Notes: a model not told the origin generated them from the letters alone. A stretch of 64,000 bases of DNA from an uncultured archaeon (GCA_964423515.1 CAYRFL010000002.1:14657-78656); one strand, 5' to 3'; shown: positions 11,234 to 18,800, counted from the first letter of the stretch. Translations and numbers: made by a program.

Positions 11234-12691
11234 ATTTTCATAGCCATGGATGATACGGACTCGAGACAGGGAGGATGTACGACATACCTTCTGAGCCGGG
11301 CCCTGGAGCTGGCTTCAGCGGCCGGTTATTCTTGTGTGGGATTCCCCGGATTGGTCCGATTGAATCCGAACATACCCTTCAAGACCAGGGGCAACGGTGC
11401 GGTGGTGGCCCGACTCGCACGAAGGGAGGATATGGACGGCCTGGAAACGTTCACGTCCGGCGGTGTCGGGAACACACACATAGAATCCTTGAGAGAACGG
11501 TCACCGGAATACGATGCTGAAACGCTCTCGTCGATGGCCTCCCTCTTCGGGGAGTTGAGAAACCTTGTTTCCTCGGAATCCCATCTGGATGACGTGAACA
11601 CGAATCCGGGCCTGGTGGTCAGCCTTGACCGCTTCGATGTTTTTCAGTACCGGAGGGCGGTTCGCGAGATGTATCCTATGGAGAAGGCATTGTCTGTACT
11701 GGCATCAAAAGAGCTTACGCTTCATAAGGGCTTTGGCAACGGTCGGGGCCTCGTCGGATGCCTTGGTGCCCTCGCCTGGTTACAGAACCTCGACCTCCAT
11801 GGAATGGACCGGACATTCGAGATCATCACATACCGGAGACCGGAGTTCTGGGGAACGCCGAGGGAAGTGGATGCAGGGACAGCAAAGGAACTGGATGCCC
11901 TTCTGCCCGGAACGTTCAACAATTATGATACTGTGAACCGGAAGGCGCTGGTCTATCCCAATTCGCCGTGCCCGGTGCTTTTCGGTGTTCGGGGGGATGA
12001 TTGGCGCGAGCTGCCGGAGGTCCTGAAGATCCTGGATGTCTCCCAGATGGAACGTTGGCAGCTCTTCGTCACGAACCAGGGCACGGACGACCATCTCGTT
12101 AGCAAGGAGATGCCCGGGATCGAGGAGTATGATTCAGTGATAACCGAGGGCATCGTTGTCCGGGAGCCGTGGACGATAAAGGGGGGTCATGTCTTTTTGG
12201 TGATCGAGGGAGCGGGTGCACGGATGCTGGCAAGCGCATTCGAGCCTACCAAGGATTTTCGGCATACCGTCAGGGAGCTTCGAGCAGGTGATTCCCTGCG
12301 CCTGTACGGCGGTGTGAAGGGATCGGAGGCTTTAACAACGCAAGAAGGAGGCGAATGCCGCGGTGGAGGCGAACGGCATGAGGACCTCGACGGCCTTGCA
12401 TCGAGCGGCGGGGTAAGATCACTCTGTATCAATATAGAGAAGATGGAGATCCTGGGATTGACACATGCCCCAAGAAAGCTAGGGAATCCCATCTGTACCG
12501 GTTGCCGGAGAAGAATGAAATCCGCGGGAGCAGGCCAGGGTTACAGGTGCAGAAGATGCGGAACCACGGCGGGGGAGGATGATGCGGAATACGGCCCTGC
12601 GACCAGATCTCTTCGTCTGGGAGCGATTTACGAGGTGGATGGCGTGGCCAGGAGACACCTGTCAAAGCCACTAAGGAGAATGGGTAAATGA
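11234..12691 (+). CDS. tiaS: tRNA(Ile2) 2-agmatinylcytidine synthetase
   Basis: DDTDS...CTTY, LVRLNPNIPFKTRGNGA, PCPVLFGVRG, TNQGTDDH, FEPTKDFR, C-terminal Zn ribbon and ARRHLSKPL. First ATG is 11246; the ATT 11234 start is inferred (see findings). Confidence 0.95.
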   Translation: MFIAMDDTDSRQGGCTTYLLSRALELASAAGYSCVGFPGLVRLNPNIPFKTRGNGAVVARLARREDMDGLETFTSGGVGNTHIESLRERSPEYDAETLSSMASLFGELRNLVSSESHLDDVNTNPGLVVSLDRFDVFQYRRAVREMYPMEKALSVLASKELTLHKGFGNGRGLVGCLGALAWLQNLDLHGMDRTFEIITYRRPEFWGTPREVDAGTAKELDALLPGTFNNYDTVNRKALVYPNSPCPVLFGVRGDDWRELPEVLKILDVSQMERWQLFVTNQGTDDHLVSKEMPGIEEYDSVITEGIVVREPWTIKGGHVFLVIEGAGARMLASAFEPTKDFRHTVRELRAGDSLRLYGGVKGSEALTTQEGGECRGGGERHEDLDGLASSGGVRSLCINIEKMEILGLTHAPRKLGNPICTGCRRRMKSAGAGQGYRCRRCGTTAGEDDAEYGPATRSLRLGAIYEVDGVARRHLSKPLRRMGK

Positions 12692-12716
12692 TCCTCGTAG
12701 AAGTAAAAATAAAAAG

Positions 12717-12788
12717 AGCCACCGGCGGGGATCGAACCCGCGATCTATGCCTTACCAAGGCATCGCTATACCTCTAAGCCACGGTGGC
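12717..12788 (-). tRNA. tRNA-Thr (GGT)
   Basis: Reverse strand GCCACCG...ATGCC-TTGGTAA-GGCAT...GGTTCGATCC...CGGTGGC-T forms a cloverleaf; no intron, CCA not encoded. Confidence 0.95.
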
Positions 12789-12998
12789 ATCACCGTACTT
12801 GTGTGTGAGAATCCGGAAACGTTAGCGAATAGCCTTATTATAAAAATATTTTACCTTCCAATTGACCCACTTTTACCTGCACTGGCGCATTGCATGGTCT
12901 GTTGGCATCGCTTCAGGGAATTGGTGAATGCCAGATGATGCGTACCTCCTCTTGAATGTTGTGTAATTAGGTGAAAAACAATTAATAAACAGGGCGTA

Positions 12999-13985
12999 TT
13001 GATATCCCCGATGATAGTTACCGATGAGCTCACGAAGAGGTATCCCGTAAAGGTTTCACGGTGGAAGAGACTGGTGGGACGGAAGGGGAAGCCCCGTGAA
13101 GATTCCATACTTGCGGTGGATCGGCTTCGGCTCGAGGTTAAGAAGGGCGAGGTCTTCGGTTTTCTCGGTCCCAACGGTGCCGGGAAGACCACCACCATCA
13201 AGATGCTCATCGGGCTCATGCCTCCCACATCCGGAACGGCAAGGGTCGCCGGTCACGATGTAGAGAGGGATAAGGTCGAGGTACAGGCGTGCGTCGGCTA
13301 TATGCCGGAGTCCCCTTCTTTCTACTCCAGGATATCCGTGGAGAGGACCCTGGGCTATTATTCGCGCCTCTATTCGATCTCCAAGCATGAATCGACCGCC
13401 CGCATAGCGGAGTGTCTCGAGACGGTGGGGCTGACGGGAGAGAGGGGGAAGCCCTGCGGGAAACTATCATTTGGAATGAGAAAACGTTTGTCCCTGGCCC
13501 AGGCACTCCTCCACGAACCGGAACTTCTGATCTTGGACGAGCCCACCGGGGGGCTGGACCCACAGGGCAAGAGGGATTTCCAGGACCTCCTGAGAACTCT
13601 ATCCGGAGATGGCATTACCATCTTCATGTCCTCGCATCTTCTAGGCGAGATGCAGAAGATATGTTCTAACGTCGGGATCATCAACAGCGGAAGGCTCATT
13701 GCAGATGGTTCTCTGTCCGACCTGCAGCGAAGATTGTCCAAGAAGGCAAAGGTCAGGATCGCAATACGGGTCAGATCCCCCGCATCCGTGCCATTGGAGG
13801 AGATCCGGGCACGACCGGAGGTGGCCGATGCGACCCTCAGAACGGATATTCTCACCATAATGGCGCATGACGAGGATGTCTCCTCGGAGATAAATCGACT
13901 GCTGGTCTCCAGGAACTGCCAGGTCCGATCCATGGTCATCGAGGAACCGGAACTTGAGGATATCTTCTTCGATATCACGTCCTGA
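12999..13985 (+). CDS. ABC transporter ATP-binding protein (ABC-2/multidrug type)
   Basis: GPNGAGKTT Walker A, LSFGMRKR signature, LILDEP Walker B, SSH; start TTG 12999 or ATG 13011. Confidence 0.92.
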   Translation: MISPMIVTDELTKRYPVKVSRWKRLVGRKGKPREDSILAVDRLRLEVKKGEVFGFLGPNGAGKTTTIKMLIGLMPPTSGTARVAGHDVERDKVEVQACVGYMPESPSFYSRISVERTLGYYSRLYSISKHESTARIAECLETVGLTGERGKPCGKLSFGMRKRLSLAQALLHEPELLILDEPTGGLDPQGKRDFQDLLRTLSGDGITIFMSSHLLGEMQKICSNVGIINSGRLIADGSLSDLQRRLSKKAKVRIAIRVRSPASVPLEEIRARPEVADATLRTDILTIMAHDEDVSSEINRLLVSRNCQVRSMVIEEPELEDIFFDITS

Positions 13986-14433
13986 GAGTCCTGCGGGTCC
14001 TTCTTACGGGAGTGGTCTTGCGGGATATCGTTTCCCAGGATTCCTTCATCTCAACCAGAGCCATTCCCTTTCTCTCGAAAAGCTCCATGAACTCCAGTTC
14101 GCTCAGGTATGGTGTGTCCAGAGGATCCCTTCCCAATCTTGTCGAGAAGGCCCTCATCAATCGATGGAGGGACTGATCCTTTCCCGGACTCTGCGGGGAT
14201 ATGATTATCACGGACTGCCAGTTGGATCCGCCGATGACTTCGCTCTCGAGCGAAAGGAGGAGGCCGTCGAGATCGACACTGATGGACCAGGGATAGTAAT
14301 CCCGTACCCACCGCAGACCGAATTCCGACCTGCCCTTCCTCGACCTGAGAGCATCGAAGAAAGCCTCGCCCACGTCGGTCAGCATCAGACGGTCCTTGAA
14401 GTTCTTGGGGGACTTGAGCCAGCCCTTCTTCAA
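13975..14433 (-). CDS. Hypothetical protein (possibly truncated or degenerate)
   Basis: Open frame with no recognisable motif; it extends to a TAA near 14542 without a canonical start upstream of TTG 14433. Confidence 0.3.
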   Translation of the reverse strand: MKKGWLKSPKNFKDRLMLTDVGEAFFDALRSRKGRSEFGLRWVRDYYPWSISVDLDGLLLSLESEVIGGSNWQSVIIISPQSPGKDQSLHRLMRAFSTRLGRDPLDTPYLSELEFMELFERKGMALVEMKESWETISRKTTPVRRTRRTLRT

Positions 14434-14740
14434 TCCGCTCTTGGAGACGCTGGGTCGGAGATGGTTCGGAAAGGCGATATAGATATAGAATCCCCCGTTC
14501 TCTGTGAAGCTACTGCCGTTCGGGCAAGGAAAACAGCTCTGTTACACGTGATTCTTGAAATCCTTGATGCATCAAAGATACACCGAAGCTTCGCGCATAT
14601 GACAATACGCTGTGGGTATTGTTGAGAGGTTACTACGATATAAAATTAATCATGACCATGAGTGAAAATATAAAAACCGATGCGTCATGGAATTGTGGAA
14701 ATATTACCAAACGAAGCAGACCGATGAATAGAAATTGAAA

Positions 14741-14824
14741 TGCGAGGGCTGGGATTCGAACCCAGGAACCACTCAGGACTAGACCCTGAATCTAGCGCCG
14801 TTGACCTGGCTTGGCTACCCTCGC
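14741..14824 (-). tRNA. tRNA-Leu (CAG)
   Basis: Reverse strand GCGAGGG...CTAGA-TTCAGGG-TCTAG, long variable arm, GGTTCGAATCC, CCCTCGC-A. Confidence 0.95.
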
Positions 14825-15105
14825 ACCTGTTTCGATATCGTCCCATCTGTCCCCATTCGTCATCTTTCTGCCAGGTCAACGGGGACCGGCGCGCAACACA
14901 CCTGTTGCGCGCTGAGTTCAGCCCGCAGGGGTGAACGCTATTGACCTGGCTTGGCTACCCTCGCACCTGTTTTGATATCGCCCCGTCTGTCCCCATTCGT
15001 CATCTTTCTGCCAGGTCAACGGGGACCGGTGCGCAACACACCTGTTGCGCGCTGAGTTCAGCCCGCAGGGGTGAACGCTATTGACCTGGCTTGGCTACCC
15101 TCGCA
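14801..15105 (-). repeat. 140-bp tandem repeat (2 units plus 25 nt) containing the 5' 24 nt of tRNA-Leu
   Basis: ttgacctggcttggctaccctcgca recurs at 14801, 14941 and 15081; the two full units differ at 4 of 140 positions. Confidence 0.97.
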
Positions 15106-15196
15106 TCCATCGTTTACTACTATAGGTCCCCAGATGTTCTGGATAATCTAGATTTGGGATTCGAGAACACCGGGCTGTGCCGAGAATGGAAGAGCC

Positions 15197-15577
15197 CTAT
15201 TCGGATTCCTCTTCCCCTTCTCCATCTTCCTTCTTGTTTATCTCATCCAGGATATCCCACGTCTGATCATATATCCTGTCGTCCAGCTGTGTAAGCTCCA
15301 ATCTCACCCGCAGCTTACCCTTGTCGAAAAAGATGTAGGCGGATTTAACCTGTGAACGGAAACATCGGACGCTCTTCCCCTTGTTCGAGAGCTTTGTATC
15401 CACGCACTTGATAAGGCCCATGGATACCAGCTTCTTTATCTTCTTGTAGCACACCGCCACCGGGATGTCCAGCTGTTTGCTGAGCTCCTGTGCGGTCTTG
15501 GGATATTTAAAGGAAGCGGCCAGAATCCTCAGTACGACCTCATCTGCAAAAAGTTTCGCCATTTTAAGTGCTTCCAT
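15197..15577 (-). CDS. Winged helix-turn-helix transcriptional regulator (ArsR/Lrp-like HTH)
   Basis: RIL...PKTAQELSKQLDIPVAVCYKKIKKLVSMGLI; GAGGTG RBS before ATG 15577. Confidence 0.85.
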   Translation of the reverse strand: MEALKMAKLFADEVVLRILAASFKYPKTAQELSKQLDIPVAVCYKKIKKLVSMGLIKCVDTKLSNKGKSVRCFRSQVKSAYIFFDKGKLRVRLELTQLDDRIYDQTWDILDEINKKEDGEGEEESE

Positions 15578-15880
15578 CGAGATACACCTCTCCCGGCACG
15601 GTCCGACCATTGATGACAATCATCTCTCCATGCCGTTAAAAACAGACTTTCCTCCCATATCGAGTATCGTCCGTCGTGATATGATGAGCCAAGTCTACCA
15701 TTTATACCGGGCACAATCGACGGCCCCTGTAATATAAAATACTATATAAATAGATTTCGCCAGGCAACCGAAGCGGGCCCCCTTGGCGTTGAGGTCGCCG
15801 GTGCGGACGGTCTGTATGCAGATTCTTTTCGAAGGGGGGACCCGGGGATCGGAACGGTTCTTTCCCGGTCCCTTCCAGAT

Positions 15881-18800
15881 CTACCTTTCTTCATCAGATT
15901 CACGTTCCATCCCCCTCTCAGCCGCTCTTCTCCTGCATCGCCACCGCAACAATGCAGCCAGGGCCGAAAGGATGACCGTGAGAAGGATTATCCAGGGCCA
16001 CGGACCTTCTGACCATGTGCGATCATCGACGTCCTCGGGCACAATGAACCGCATTCCCTCGAGGTACTCCTCCGTTCCATAGAAATTAAACCTGCCCGTA
16101 CTTCCGGTCAGATTGATATGCCAGCGGCCTCCGGTCAGATCGGATATGTCCAGAGGGGCCAGTTCCCAGCTCGACGATGTGGAGTTGAACGTAAGCTCCT
16201 CTGTGGAAATGACGCCATCCCGGCCCGTGAGCGCAGCTCGTACTTCCAAAGCGTCGGCCTGGGGATACTCGCTGGTAGAACCGATGGAGACATTGGCGAT
16301 GGCCAGGGTCCTTTCCATCTCTCCCCTTACCACGGTCTCCTCCATGAGAACATCTGCATCCCCCTCGAACCAGTAGATATGATCTATGGTGATCGATGAG
16401 TTGTGCAAATAATTTGCATAACTAATCCAGTTGCCTCCGAACGGAAACTCATAGATATAACGCATGCTCAGTGACAGCCGTATCTCACCCGAGGGGAAGT
16501 GCGACAGTTCCAGATCCACCCGATCCATGGTCCGATTCGAATTTGTCAGGGTTTGTGTAAATGAACTGCATACCCGAGTGCTCCCCATTTCCAGGAGCAC
16601 GGATACGTTGACATTCTCCAGGTATTCCGAATATCTGTTGAATGAATCCCATTTTGTTCCATCGGGAGAGCGTCCTTCTATTCCCGTTAGGGATAACACC
16701 TGTTCCATTCCGCCGCTGTAGAGAACATCGTTCACGGATATCTCGGGTGACGGGGGGCCGGTTATCTCGAGCGGGGTCAATTCCCCTTCTATCAGGTGAG
16801 AATCGAAAATGGTATGAACCCTGAAGGAGAACCCGTAGAGACCCGGCCTGACGCCGCCGAGGTCGATCTCGCAACGATATCGTCTGGACAGGTTGATAAT
16901 ATCCTCATTGGACGTTGCGTCAGCGTTATCCCCGGCGCCGATCCCCGCGGGCTCCAATGGAACGTTGTCCAATACGATGAGGGGGAGAGAGGAATTTTCG
17001 GGATGGAGCAGAAGACCACATCCGGTTCCGGGCTCCTGGCTCATGTTCAGCCACTGCGCGTAGGAGGATGTCATCATCAGTTTCTCGAAGATCAGGGTTA
17101 GGTCGTCCAGGAGAACGTGGTCGGACCCGTAAAGACGCGTTATGTGATCCACCGAGAACAGCGATCCCTCAGATGCCGGGGAGGAAAGATTCTGGGACCC
17201 GTAGCGAAAGTCGATCCTTACGTTGTGATCTCCCTCCGGGAGCGATGAGACGTTGATGCCGTGAGACCGCCACGCGTTTCCCGTGTCGTCGAATTCCAGA
17301 GCGCCCGAGAGCCCGGGTGTTTCGTTATCCGTCCCTGTCAGGGTATATCGGACGTCCGTTACGTTTTCGGGGTTGAGAAGGCCGGGTTCATCGCCGTTGG
17401 TGCCGATGGTGACATTCTCGATGTTAAGAAGCTGATGGAAACCGCCAGTATAATCGACGCTTATGCTGTGAACTCCCGCATGGTCCAGGACCTCGATCTC
17501 TCTTGTCTCCGAGCGGAATATCTCCGGGGAGCCGTCAACTCGGGCCTCCGCTCCGACGTACAGGGTTCCGGGTGTATCGGGTATCTCGAGCGTGGTCCGA
17601 AAAACGGTCTTCGCTCCTGTGAACGGACCAAGGCTAAGAAGGGTATCTGTCCACGGGTCCGGCGACCGGGAGACACGAAGATAAGCGGCATCCACAGTGT
17701 CGGCCCCGCCGACGGTCCACTCGATATCCACGGGGCTCCCCCTCACGGCCATATCCGGCGAAACGGTTATCTCCGCGTACGGCCTGGTCTTCACGTACAA
17801 TGTATCGGAACTGAAAACCGTACCGCTCTCGTTCTCCGCAACGGCCTGGAAACGGAAGGTCCCCCACTTGTCGGGCAGCTCTATCACGGCCCCATACGTT
17901 CCTTCCTCCTTTATCGTTCCCGGGACCATACTGTCGGGTCCGGCGTCGGGTTCCTCCTCCCCCCATCGAAGATAAGAATGGTTCAATTCCCCGGGAACGT
18001 TCACCCTCCATTGGAGAACGAGCTCATCCCCCTTCTCCGCATGTGAAGGCAGGGACGACATCTCCACGGTACCGTTGACCACCAGGAGACGGGAGATCAG
18101 GGTGACGTTCCTTTGGCAAATGAGGCGATTGCCGCCGTTCTCGATGACGGTCCCGTCCTCCGTTCTCATCCTGACATAGAGGCTCTGGGGAATAACGGCC
18201 GGTTCGGGATTGTCCTGCTGAGACAGATGTCCATCCGGAATGACCCGGATCTCGACATCGTACGAACCCGACACTTCGGGAGCGGAAAACCTTCCGGTGA
18301 ATCTCTTGAGGCTGAGAGGATTGCCGCCCTCCTCCATCCCCTCCCATGAGCTCGCTACCGGGGAGTCGTTCAGGCTCCAGGCGATGCTCTCTGAGGTCGA
18401 GAGCTTATCCCTCAGGACCACCTGGCAGGAGTCCACGTTCTCGCAGCCACCCACGGTCCATTCCATCCCTATCTCAGTGCCAGGATCGGCGTATAGGGTA
18501 TCCTCATCTGTTTCTTCCATGTGGATATAAGGGGAAACGGTATCGATCATGTAGAGGGCCATGCGTATGTTCTTTGGTATGTATCCGTCTCCTGCGCCGC
18601 CGGGAACGTATATCTCCTCGTCCGTACCCAGCCTGTCCGCCGCCGGACGATCCTCACCGGATATCTCCACGGTATATGCCAGGGACCTGCACCCTTCCGT
18701 GGGCCAGCCCGGGGAGACGTGATCGAGGTCCCACGATGCGGCATACGCATAATCGGAGAAGGCCCCCCTGGCGTGGTATATCACCTGATTGTTCCTTCCC

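Follow-up and report, generated by a model that had tools for sequence, protein, structure and literature searches.

A covarying fold-back repeat of the tRNA 5' region upstream of tRNA-Leu and tRNA-Ser genes in Thermoplasmatota archaea

A stretch of 64,000 nucleotides of DNA from an uncultured archaeon (GCA_964423515.1, CAYRFL010000002.1:14657-78656; hereafter the window) carries a tRNA-Leu(CAG) gene that is directly preceded by two tandem 140-nt units, each of which opens with a copy of the tRNA 5' end. All features of the units and of this tRNA lie on the minus strand; positions are those of the window, and unit numbering runs 5' to 3' from the unit start. The intact tRNA, 84 nt without an encoded CCA, occupies 14741..14824 (Rfam tRNA model, 50.7 bits, with a sequence check), and ARAGORN places it at 14740-14825(-). 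Tandem Repeats Finder reported a repeat at 14801-15105 with a period of 140, 2.2 copies, 97% matches and a score of 582. The distal unit, unit 1, lies at 14965..15104 and scored 111.1 bits over nt 1-95 with the covariance model R1 described below; the tRNA-proximal unit 2 lies at 14825..14964 and scored 114.2 bits. The coordinates and the tRNA copies were checked by script for the tRNA and both units. The arrangement given in a preliminary description of this locus, two 140-nt units each opening with the tRNA 5' end and then the intact tRNA, was thus recovered by ARAGORN, Rfam, the tandem repeat search and the script. The same description had counted four substitutions between the units, and exactly four differences were found, at unit positions 75, 120, 124 and 132. 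Whether the repeat continues in the window beyond the 5' end of unit 1 was also considered; this was rejected, since the local alignment score of 14 was at the level of shuffled sequence (shuffle mean 13.8, with 255 of 500 shuffles equal to it or higher).

Each unit reads, in order, as a copy of tRNA nt 1-27 with a two-hairpin module inserted after nt 24, a UCC triloop, an inverted copy of nt 27-15, and a tail. In unit 1 the direct copy of tRNA nt 1-24, which is identical to the tRNA and comprises the acceptor 5' strand, the D-stem 5' strand and the D-loop, lies at 15081..15104. The module consists of hairpin hp1 (15056..15076) and hairpin hp2 (15029..15052), the latter with 10 bp and the loop GGTG; unit 1 closes hp2 with a C-A pair, unit 2 with C-G. 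The tRNA continuation CGG (nt 25-27) stands 3' of the second hairpin and forms the 5' strand of hp3 (CGG-UCC-CCG, 15020..15028; script check). The 3' strand of hp3 and the 3' strand of a further helix, P1, together make up the 'anti-D' strand at 15010..15022, a 13-nt exact reverse complement of tRNA nt 15-27. The unit ends in a 45-nt tail (14965..15009), the length and sequence of which vary in comparison with relatives. The script located the corresponding parts of unit 2: the direct copy of nt 1-24 at 14941..14964, hp1 at 14916..14936 and hp2 at 14889..14912 (both also placed by alignment and single-sequence folds), the 13-nt reverse complement of nt 15-27 at 14870..14882, and the tail at 14825..14869, which doubles as the immediate 5' leader of the tRNA.

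Copied nt 15-24 provide the 5' strand of helix P1 in unit 1. In the unit as a whole, nt 15/16-24 (the D-loop copy) pair with nt 86-95, and the 3' strand of P1 is TTGACCTGGC. P1 and hp3 abut and total 13 bp, with the spare D-arm copy paired to its own mirror image. The folded unit is, by prediction, a four-way junction with P1 and hp3 as its closing helix. Both hairpins named in the preliminary description correspond to hp1 and hp2 and proved to be conserved. The third helix that it proposed, GTCCCCGTT/AATGGGGAC, does exist in the window, but it is absent from the related genomes G001 and G003 and was dropped as a defining feature. Pairing comparable to it was seen by eye in some relatives only, with one compensatory case (L053; uncounted), and it competes with the conserved P1, which had been missed. 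A 'tRNA-like register' (TAGCG versus CGGCG) had also been proposed; relatives show TTTCG, TTCCG, TCTCG and CCTTG at that place, and the idea did not hold. (Genomes, contigs and loci are denoted here by G, C and L numbers, families and genera by f and g numbers.)

As the preliminary description had suggested, the unit was compared by BLAST with its own genome and with relatives, and a covariance model was built. BLAST showed the core to be unique within its own genome; the family recurs in relatives. Among the own genome and 60 relatives, long BLAST matches occurred only in the sister genomes G001 and G003, so a covariance model was needed to reach further. In both sister genomes 2 or 3 units stand between the same upstream gene and tRNA-Leu(CAG); a further unit stands at a contig end, behind a gene for an RNA polymerase subunit D-like protein. 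The covariance model, R1, was built from 8 units. It detected units in all four genomes of the order and in 17 of the 37 genomes of the class, namely the own genome, 3 of 3 others of family f1 and 13 of 24 of family f7, with none in 9 genomes of seven other families. In a phylum sample searched with stricter filters, 17 of 151 genomes carried units, and three of these were new and belonged to family f34, in which the units precede tRNA-Ser(TGA).

The linkage to tRNA genes is close. Sixteen of the 18 loci in f7 have a Leu (GAG, CAG, TAA) or Ser (TGA, GCT) tRNA downstream on the same strand, the other two being contig ends. A Leu or Ser tRNA stands 18-353 nt downstream on the same strand for 30 of 33 aligned units, and the remaining 3 are again at contig ends. 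The number of units per locus is 1 to 3, and the Leu-type unit occurs in the window's own genome (G000) at this locus only. On the sequence comparison, the unit design is an old, heritable family that precedes class II tRNA genes (Leu, Ser) in three or more Thermoplasmatota families. A 16-mer scan of public contigs extended the comparison: among the matches listed, two of three checked 'Thermoplasmatota archaeon' records held units and tRNA-Leu, while the other matches listed, mostly bacterial records, were taken for chance matches. One locus of G003 (L042, G003:C12:12249-12680) carries a tRNA-Leu whose anticodon loop contains a 34- to 37-nt intron; Rfam calls this gene, and ARAGORN does so only when its intron search is on. 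The gene is preceded by two 184-nt units in which a 55-nt AT-rich insert parts the acceptor copy from the D-loop copy.

Pairing in the units has been maintained while hairpin loops and stem sequences vary freely. In the 33-unit alignment, 91.9% of cells are standard pairs, compared with 24-48% when the partners were slid, and double changes occur at 26 of the 30 pairs. The covariation score was 0.51 vs 0.155 in shuffles, and was reached by none of 500 shuffles; this shuffle control is inflated by relatedness, but the slid control is clear, as are the per-helix counts of double (compensatory) changes (8 of 8 pairs in hp1, 10 of 10 in hp2). P1 is paired in 90.2% of cells over the 33 units, and the CCGGUCCCCG stretch is very conserved across units. 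Single-sequence folds recovered the four-way junction in four of five units of 95- to 103-nt, with z values of -2.3 to -5.6. For window unit 1 such a fold gave P1 and hp3 only; the fold of the full 140-nt unit 1 retained P1 and hp3 with a z value of -0.64.

Judging by the sequences, the inverted copy tracks the local tRNA. Helix hp3 is AAG-UUC-CUU in L064, where tRNA nt 25-27 are AAG, and AGG-AAA-CCU in family f34, where the tRNA has AGG at these positions. Similarly, the D-loop variants CCAGG, CCTGG, CTTGG, CTTGGCC and CCTGGTAC are each matched by their own complement in the unit. These three independent variants support the fold-back anatomy. An exactly matching inverted copy that spans nt 19-27 and measures 9 nt or more was found within 450 nt upstream of 28 of 32 Leu/Ser loci, a set biased by its make-up (loci with matches, plus Leu loci fetched from genomes without matches); by our own estimate, the chance of such a copy is about 0.06 per locus. 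In a control on G000, an inverted 12-mer lay upstream of only 1 of 36 tRNA genes. The inverted copy covers acceptor nt 1-14 as well in L077, L087 and L088.

The same scaffold of spare copy and inverted copy can hold another insert. By eye, a 'type 2' arrangement with a different, unrelated two-hairpin insert was recognized upstream of tRNA-Leu/Ser genes in f7, at L077, L079, L080, L087, L088, L064 (proximal), L050, L056 and L060 (distal), and its carriers include genomes of genus g17 without model matches. A tRNA-like 12-bp 'ruler' formed by P1 and hp3 was entertained and dropped, because type-2 units have, by eye, a further hairpin capping the helix.

The acceptor part of the direct copy fares differently from the D-loop part. 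In the single-unit loci L049, L061, L042, L057, L054 and L067, the acceptor copy (nt 1-9) is mutated, interrupted or partly deleted, whereas the D-loop part persists as a helix strand. This pattern indicates that acceptor mimicry is a relic of duplication and not a selected feature. The decay also speaks against the release of tRNA-mimic small RNAs by RNase P, which the preliminary description had put forward; moreover, the unit is without a 3' acceptor strand, so nothing in it resembles an RNase P substrate.

Units have been gained, lost and exchanged. The site between rpoD and tRNA-Leu(GAG) is empty in G000, where a 60-nt spacer lies at C44:20051-20110, and filled in G001 and G002; other empty sites are L081, L084 and L086. 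The unit at the GAG locus of G001 is nearly identical to the units at its CAG locus (120 vs 116-118 bits), whereas the orthologous GAG-locus unit of G002 is very different (33.7 bits), which points to transfer or conversion between loci. The GAG-locus units of different f7 genera resemble one another and show compensatory changes, which argues for vertical descent too.

The two-hairpin module was also found outside Leu/Ser loci in family f1. tRNA-Val genes are preceded by 1-2 units composed of tRNA nt 1-22, a related two-hairpin module and tRNA nt 23-37, without the inverted copy. These lie at G000:C20 (37730-37946), G000:C27 (18001-18329), G003:C20, G002:C15 and G001:C92; L069, L070 and L071 are of this kind, and the first of these has three modules in a row. 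In addition, intergenic elements of about 300 nt consist of a long closing hairpin that holds 3-5 hairpins, the hp1/hp2 module among them, and of a second hairpin-rich domain. They occur at G000:C11:52153-52400, G000:C47:12159-12450 and G000:C53:7441-7800 and in L044 and L047 (G001), have no Rfam match and often adjoin tRNA-Val genes. An 'empty' closing hairpin lies on G000:C27 at about 17880-17915, roughly 340-375 nt upstream of tRNA-Val(TAC). The presence of the module in tRNA-Val copies and in free elements indicates that some form of spread between loci is real. In every tRNA context the module sits mid-way in the duplicated tRNA segment (1-24 | 25-27 in Leu/Ser; 1-22 | 23-37 in Val), which means that the duplication is not a target-site duplication made by the module.

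The explanation that we favor, tentatively and with somewhat less than even confidence, is that the unit is a recombination-spread fold-back repeat of the tRNA's own 5' region, carried in the pre-tRNA leader and kept folded so as to avoid trapping the tRNA. Units would multiply by unequal recombination between the repeats of the tRNA 5' end, and ectopic recombination or gene conversion would spread them, or remove them, between similar tRNA-Leu/Ser loci. The tRNA promoter would drive their transcription as part of the tRNA transcript, in the form of a long 5' leader, which RNase P would remove by its cut at the real tRNA 5' end. Purifying selection would keep the pairing because a spare 5' strand or anti-D strand left unpaired could base-pair to the real tRNA and so trap it.

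Two kinds of evidence bear on this sequence of events. The longest run of T between the first unit and the tRNA is at most 4 in 19 of 20 loci, and runs of at least 5 T occur within 40 nt past 8 of 20 tRNAs; this pattern weakly favors a single transcript. In an unconstrained RNAfold prediction of unit 2 with the tRNA, the anti-D strand paired with nt 15-27 of the real tRNA and the tRNA 3' end was bound by the spare acceptor strand, at -95.1 kcal/mol vs -87.2 kcal/mol summed for the parts folded apart. The whole-locus fold behaved like that of unit 2 with the tRNA. RNAfold yielded no cloverleaf even for the tRNA alone, so this is a soft test, by which the mis-pairing is energetically plausible at most. 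A trapping hazard may plausibly exist in silico.

Several observations weigh against the fold-back repeat explanation. RNA under selection is usually richer in GU pairs. Wobble pairs are not enriched in the alignment, with 15 GU/UG vs 26 AC/CA cells out of 972, so that a constraint on hairpins at the DNA level is possible; a wobble asymmetry that would serve as proof of RNA was looked for and not found. The predicted equilibrium fold prefers the trapped over the 'locked' state, and the lock would consequently need to be kinetic, i.e., co-transcriptional. An uninterrupted hairpin would make a better simple lock. The explanation also leaves the conserved two-hairpin module and the CCGGUCCCCG stretch unaccounted for, and an architecture conserved across two classes represents a long persistence for a passenger element.

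The last of these points suit a second explanation better. The unit may be a functional, cis-acting leader RNA whose junction acts as a sensor or protein platform that chooses the partner of the anti-D strand, either the decoy or the real D-arm, and so gates the folding or maturation of the class II tRNA; in a variant, the junction would be released as a stable small RNA. The strong covariation, the long persistence of the design, and an architecture kept over three families and two classes, CCGGUCCCCG included, are what such a function would leave behind. The anti-D strand also has a choice of partners, since the module splits the decoy and the real tRNA is therefore the longer contiguous target: the decoy pairing is 10 + 3 bp, compared with 13 contiguous bp for the D-arm of the real tRNA (checked in the window, L064 and f34), and the predicted equilibrium fold does pair the anti-D strand with the real tRNA. 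The unrelated type-2 insert in the same scaffold likewise looks as if the scaffold mattered more than the insert. However, the units are patchy among orthologous loci and within genera, as the empty sites on G000:C44 and at L081, L084 and L086 illustrate, and a 97%-complete genome is without a type-1 match although its sister genome has units. Loci differ in unit number (1 to 3), there is no excess of wobble pairs, and loops and stems vary freely, with no conserved core resembling a ligand pocket evident. On balance a regulatory leader of this kind is possible but somewhat doubtful.

A specific form of regulation was considered in which the junction would hold the antisense strand until temperature, a protein or a metabolite freed it to invade the real D-arm and block maturation. 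We consider this folding switch doubtful. If true, it would be a previously unknown regulation of tRNA-Leu/Ser supply in archaea through precursor folding, and the combination of decoy, antisense strand and target would serve as a testable model for precursor-level control of tRNA supply.

The possibility was also considered that the unit is a non-autonomous mobile element of small size, with the boundary of the D-loop and D-stem in tRNA or tRNA-like DNA as its target, the anti-D strand as a pairing guide and an insertion that makes or needs the 5'-end duplication. The preliminary description had proposed a tRNA-targeting mobile unit, and part of that proposal stands: the units are tRNA-linked, tandemly amplified and structured, have an atypical 5'-end repeat and recur in related genomes. 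The module occupies the same tRNA position, just past the last D-loop base, in the Leu/Ser and Val spare copies. At one Val locus three modules follow one another, loci within a genome resemble each other, and the module also sits in the loop of the long hairpin of the approximately 300-nt free elements, of which the G000:C27 hairpin would be the empty form. Near-strict Watson-Crick pairing would suit DNA hairpins. What does not stand is the machinery: no transposase, integrase or transposon-type target-site duplication was found. Neighboring genes encode no transposase or integrase, and the units have neither terminal inverted repeats nor short target-site duplications. The arms of P1 can be read as 10-bp inverted repeats, but the left arm belongs to the longer direct tRNA copy, and flanking short duplications are absent. 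The module stands in the middle of the duplicated tRNA segment, so it made no target-site duplication, and the neighboring modules of L069 can be explained by tandem duplication and compensatory change. A link to a Y1 transposase (PF01797) found no support: only two of the order's four genomes contain the gene, and no similar hairpins were seen in its flanks; the inverted repeats beside the G000 copy are, by eye, unlike hp1 and hp2. A mobile unit of this kind is unlikely.

Partial tRNA copies that flank integrated elements are common in archaea, according to van der Gulik et al. 2023 (PMC9897764), and the repeats of the tRNA 5' end could be scars left by the repeated integration and loss of viruses or plasmids using the tRNA as attB. 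The f7 repeat reaches about 25 nt into the leader, as att identity segments often do. However, only 116 nt lie between the repeats, no integrase or mobile-element gene was found among the neighbors, and no full-length integrase element bounded by units was seen in the loci examined. The intervening sequence is structurally conserved across families, with covariation, and holds an inverted tRNA copy, which makes it unlike a decayed element. This origin appears very improbable.

Archaeal non-canonical introns have been reported in the region of the D-loop and D-stem. The break in the tRNA copy falls at this position, and the upstream 5' copy could serve as an alternative exon, with the DNA in between excised as a D-loop intron by the archaeal splicing endonuclease; the whole-transcript fold does pair the distal acceptor copy with the tRNA 3' end. 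The downstream tRNA gene is, however, complete and uninterrupted, which makes the 5' piece redundant. P1 and hp3 are continuous on the 3' strand and do not form a bulge-helix-bulge (BHB). Furthermore, a scripted scan of the 386-nt locus for helix-bulge-helix-bulge-helix (hBHBh') motifs found none whose removal yields the tRNA, and its matches at 140-nt spacing were trivial self-pairings within hp2. At a tRNA-Val locus, two D-arm copies give a wobble-rich hBHBh' around a CTAG core, a motif that we judge to be near chance. An intron or split gene is scarcely credible here.

That the tandem arrangement is an assembly artefact has a next to negligible chance: Logan contigs X1 and X4, from two runs in two studies, do join 14890 to 15031 in a one-unit form that may reflect true copy-number variation or k-mer collapse, these contigs not resolving copy number, but the units differ by four substitutions, the unit1/unit2 junction is bridged by a 170-nt contig (X7), the unit and its junctions reappear in independent Logan contigs from two studies, and homologous arrays of 1-3 units are present in independent genomes.

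The nearest named kind is the tRNA-linked repeats of E. coli. These include the 178-bp tyrT-distal repeats and RtT RNA (Rfam RF00391), copy the 3' end of the tRNA, lie downstream of it and are co-transcribed with it. Both are tandem repeats beside a tRNA gene, each with a short piece of the tRNA; the archaeal units differ in that they copy the 5' end and D-loop, lie upstream, contain an inverted D-arm and a covarying four-way junction, and have a design conserved across archaeal families. A second comparison is with REP/BIME, MITE and PATE repeats, which are short, near-strict Watson-Crick hairpin modules that accumulate side by side in intergenic DNA. Short hairpin modules recurring between genes are common to both, but the units lack terminal inverted repeats and target-site duplications, their modules keep to one position in the tRNA copy, and their stems vary freely with pairing kept.

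Three further comparisons can be made. The partial tRNA gene copies described by van der Gulik et al. 2023 (PMC9897764) derive from integration or CRISPR spacers, and the repeats bound elements of 9-23 kb with integrases. They share with the units a direct repeat of part of a tRNA beside the intact gene, whereas in the units the repeats enclose 116 nt of conserved, folded DNA and no integrase occurs among the neighbors. In split and multi-intron archaeal tRNA genes (reviewed in PMC4033280 and PMC3978253), a separate 5' piece, a complementary sequence next to it and a break in the D-arm recall the unit; the units differ in that an intact tRNA is present, a BHB was not found and the 5' piece is redundant. 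Inverted triplications, also termed tandem inversion duplications or DUP-TRP/INV-DUP, are presented in Brewer et al. 2015 (PMC4689423) as recent, kb-scale amplicons with a direct-inverted-direct order, the inverted arm of which is later variably shortened. A unit followed by the tRNA has the order direct nt 1-27, inverted nt 27-15, direct nt 1-84, but the units involve about 30 nt of tRNA, have long been conserved and have a module inserted. By analogy with those products, we infer that the units may have originated by template switching during replication, and nt 27-31 would be a candidate turn-around point.

A search of the full text of articles returned no description of such units, and the family is apparently undescribed; Supplementary Table S3 of PMC9897764 may list similar fragments. 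If the fold-back repeat explanation holds, the units constitute a conserved, covariation-supported structured family in the pre-tRNA leaders of Thermoplasmatota Leu/Ser genes, and essential single-copy tRNA genes can carry long-lived direct and inverted copies of themselves in their own transcripts. They would offer a concrete case for how passengers stay harmless, or get used to control the folding of a tRNA. The units matter for genome annotation too, since neither tRNA finders nor Rfam detect the spare 5' pieces or the free multi-hairpin elements. An Rfam search of window positions 12000-18000 at E up to 1 returned two tRNAs and nothing else, and when 8 related loci were added the result was tRNAs and two chance sub-threshold matches; the units matched no family.

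The genes around the locus are unremarkable, and Pfam analysis of six neighboring open reading frames (ORFs) revealed no integrase or transposase. A helix-turn-helix (HTH) regulator lies upstream, and a 223-aa ORF without a Pfam family, an ABC ATPase and TiaS lie downstream; the other two ORFs encode an M14 peptidase and a PKD protein. The second tRNA is a tRNA-Thr(GGT) at 12716-12788(-), called by both ARAGORN and Rfam. It adjoins the gene for TiaS, the tRNA-Ile2 agmatidine synthetase, at 11246-12691 (+), about 2 kb from the tRNA-Leu locus.

Finally, a few other short repeats were noted near the tRNA genes. The tRNA-Leu leaders of f1 have repeated GGATG(C/T)AT motifs just upstream of +1 (G000:C44:20051-20110; L029, L030), and f7 leaders have CATCCGC about 25 nt upstream. 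Another small hairpin repeat, CCCGTAGGC...GCCGAGGG followed by a second hairpin, was seen on the minus strand in L029 (600-760) and L030 (600-725); it lies downstream of tRNA-Leu in G003 and G001 and occurs also inside the free element L044.

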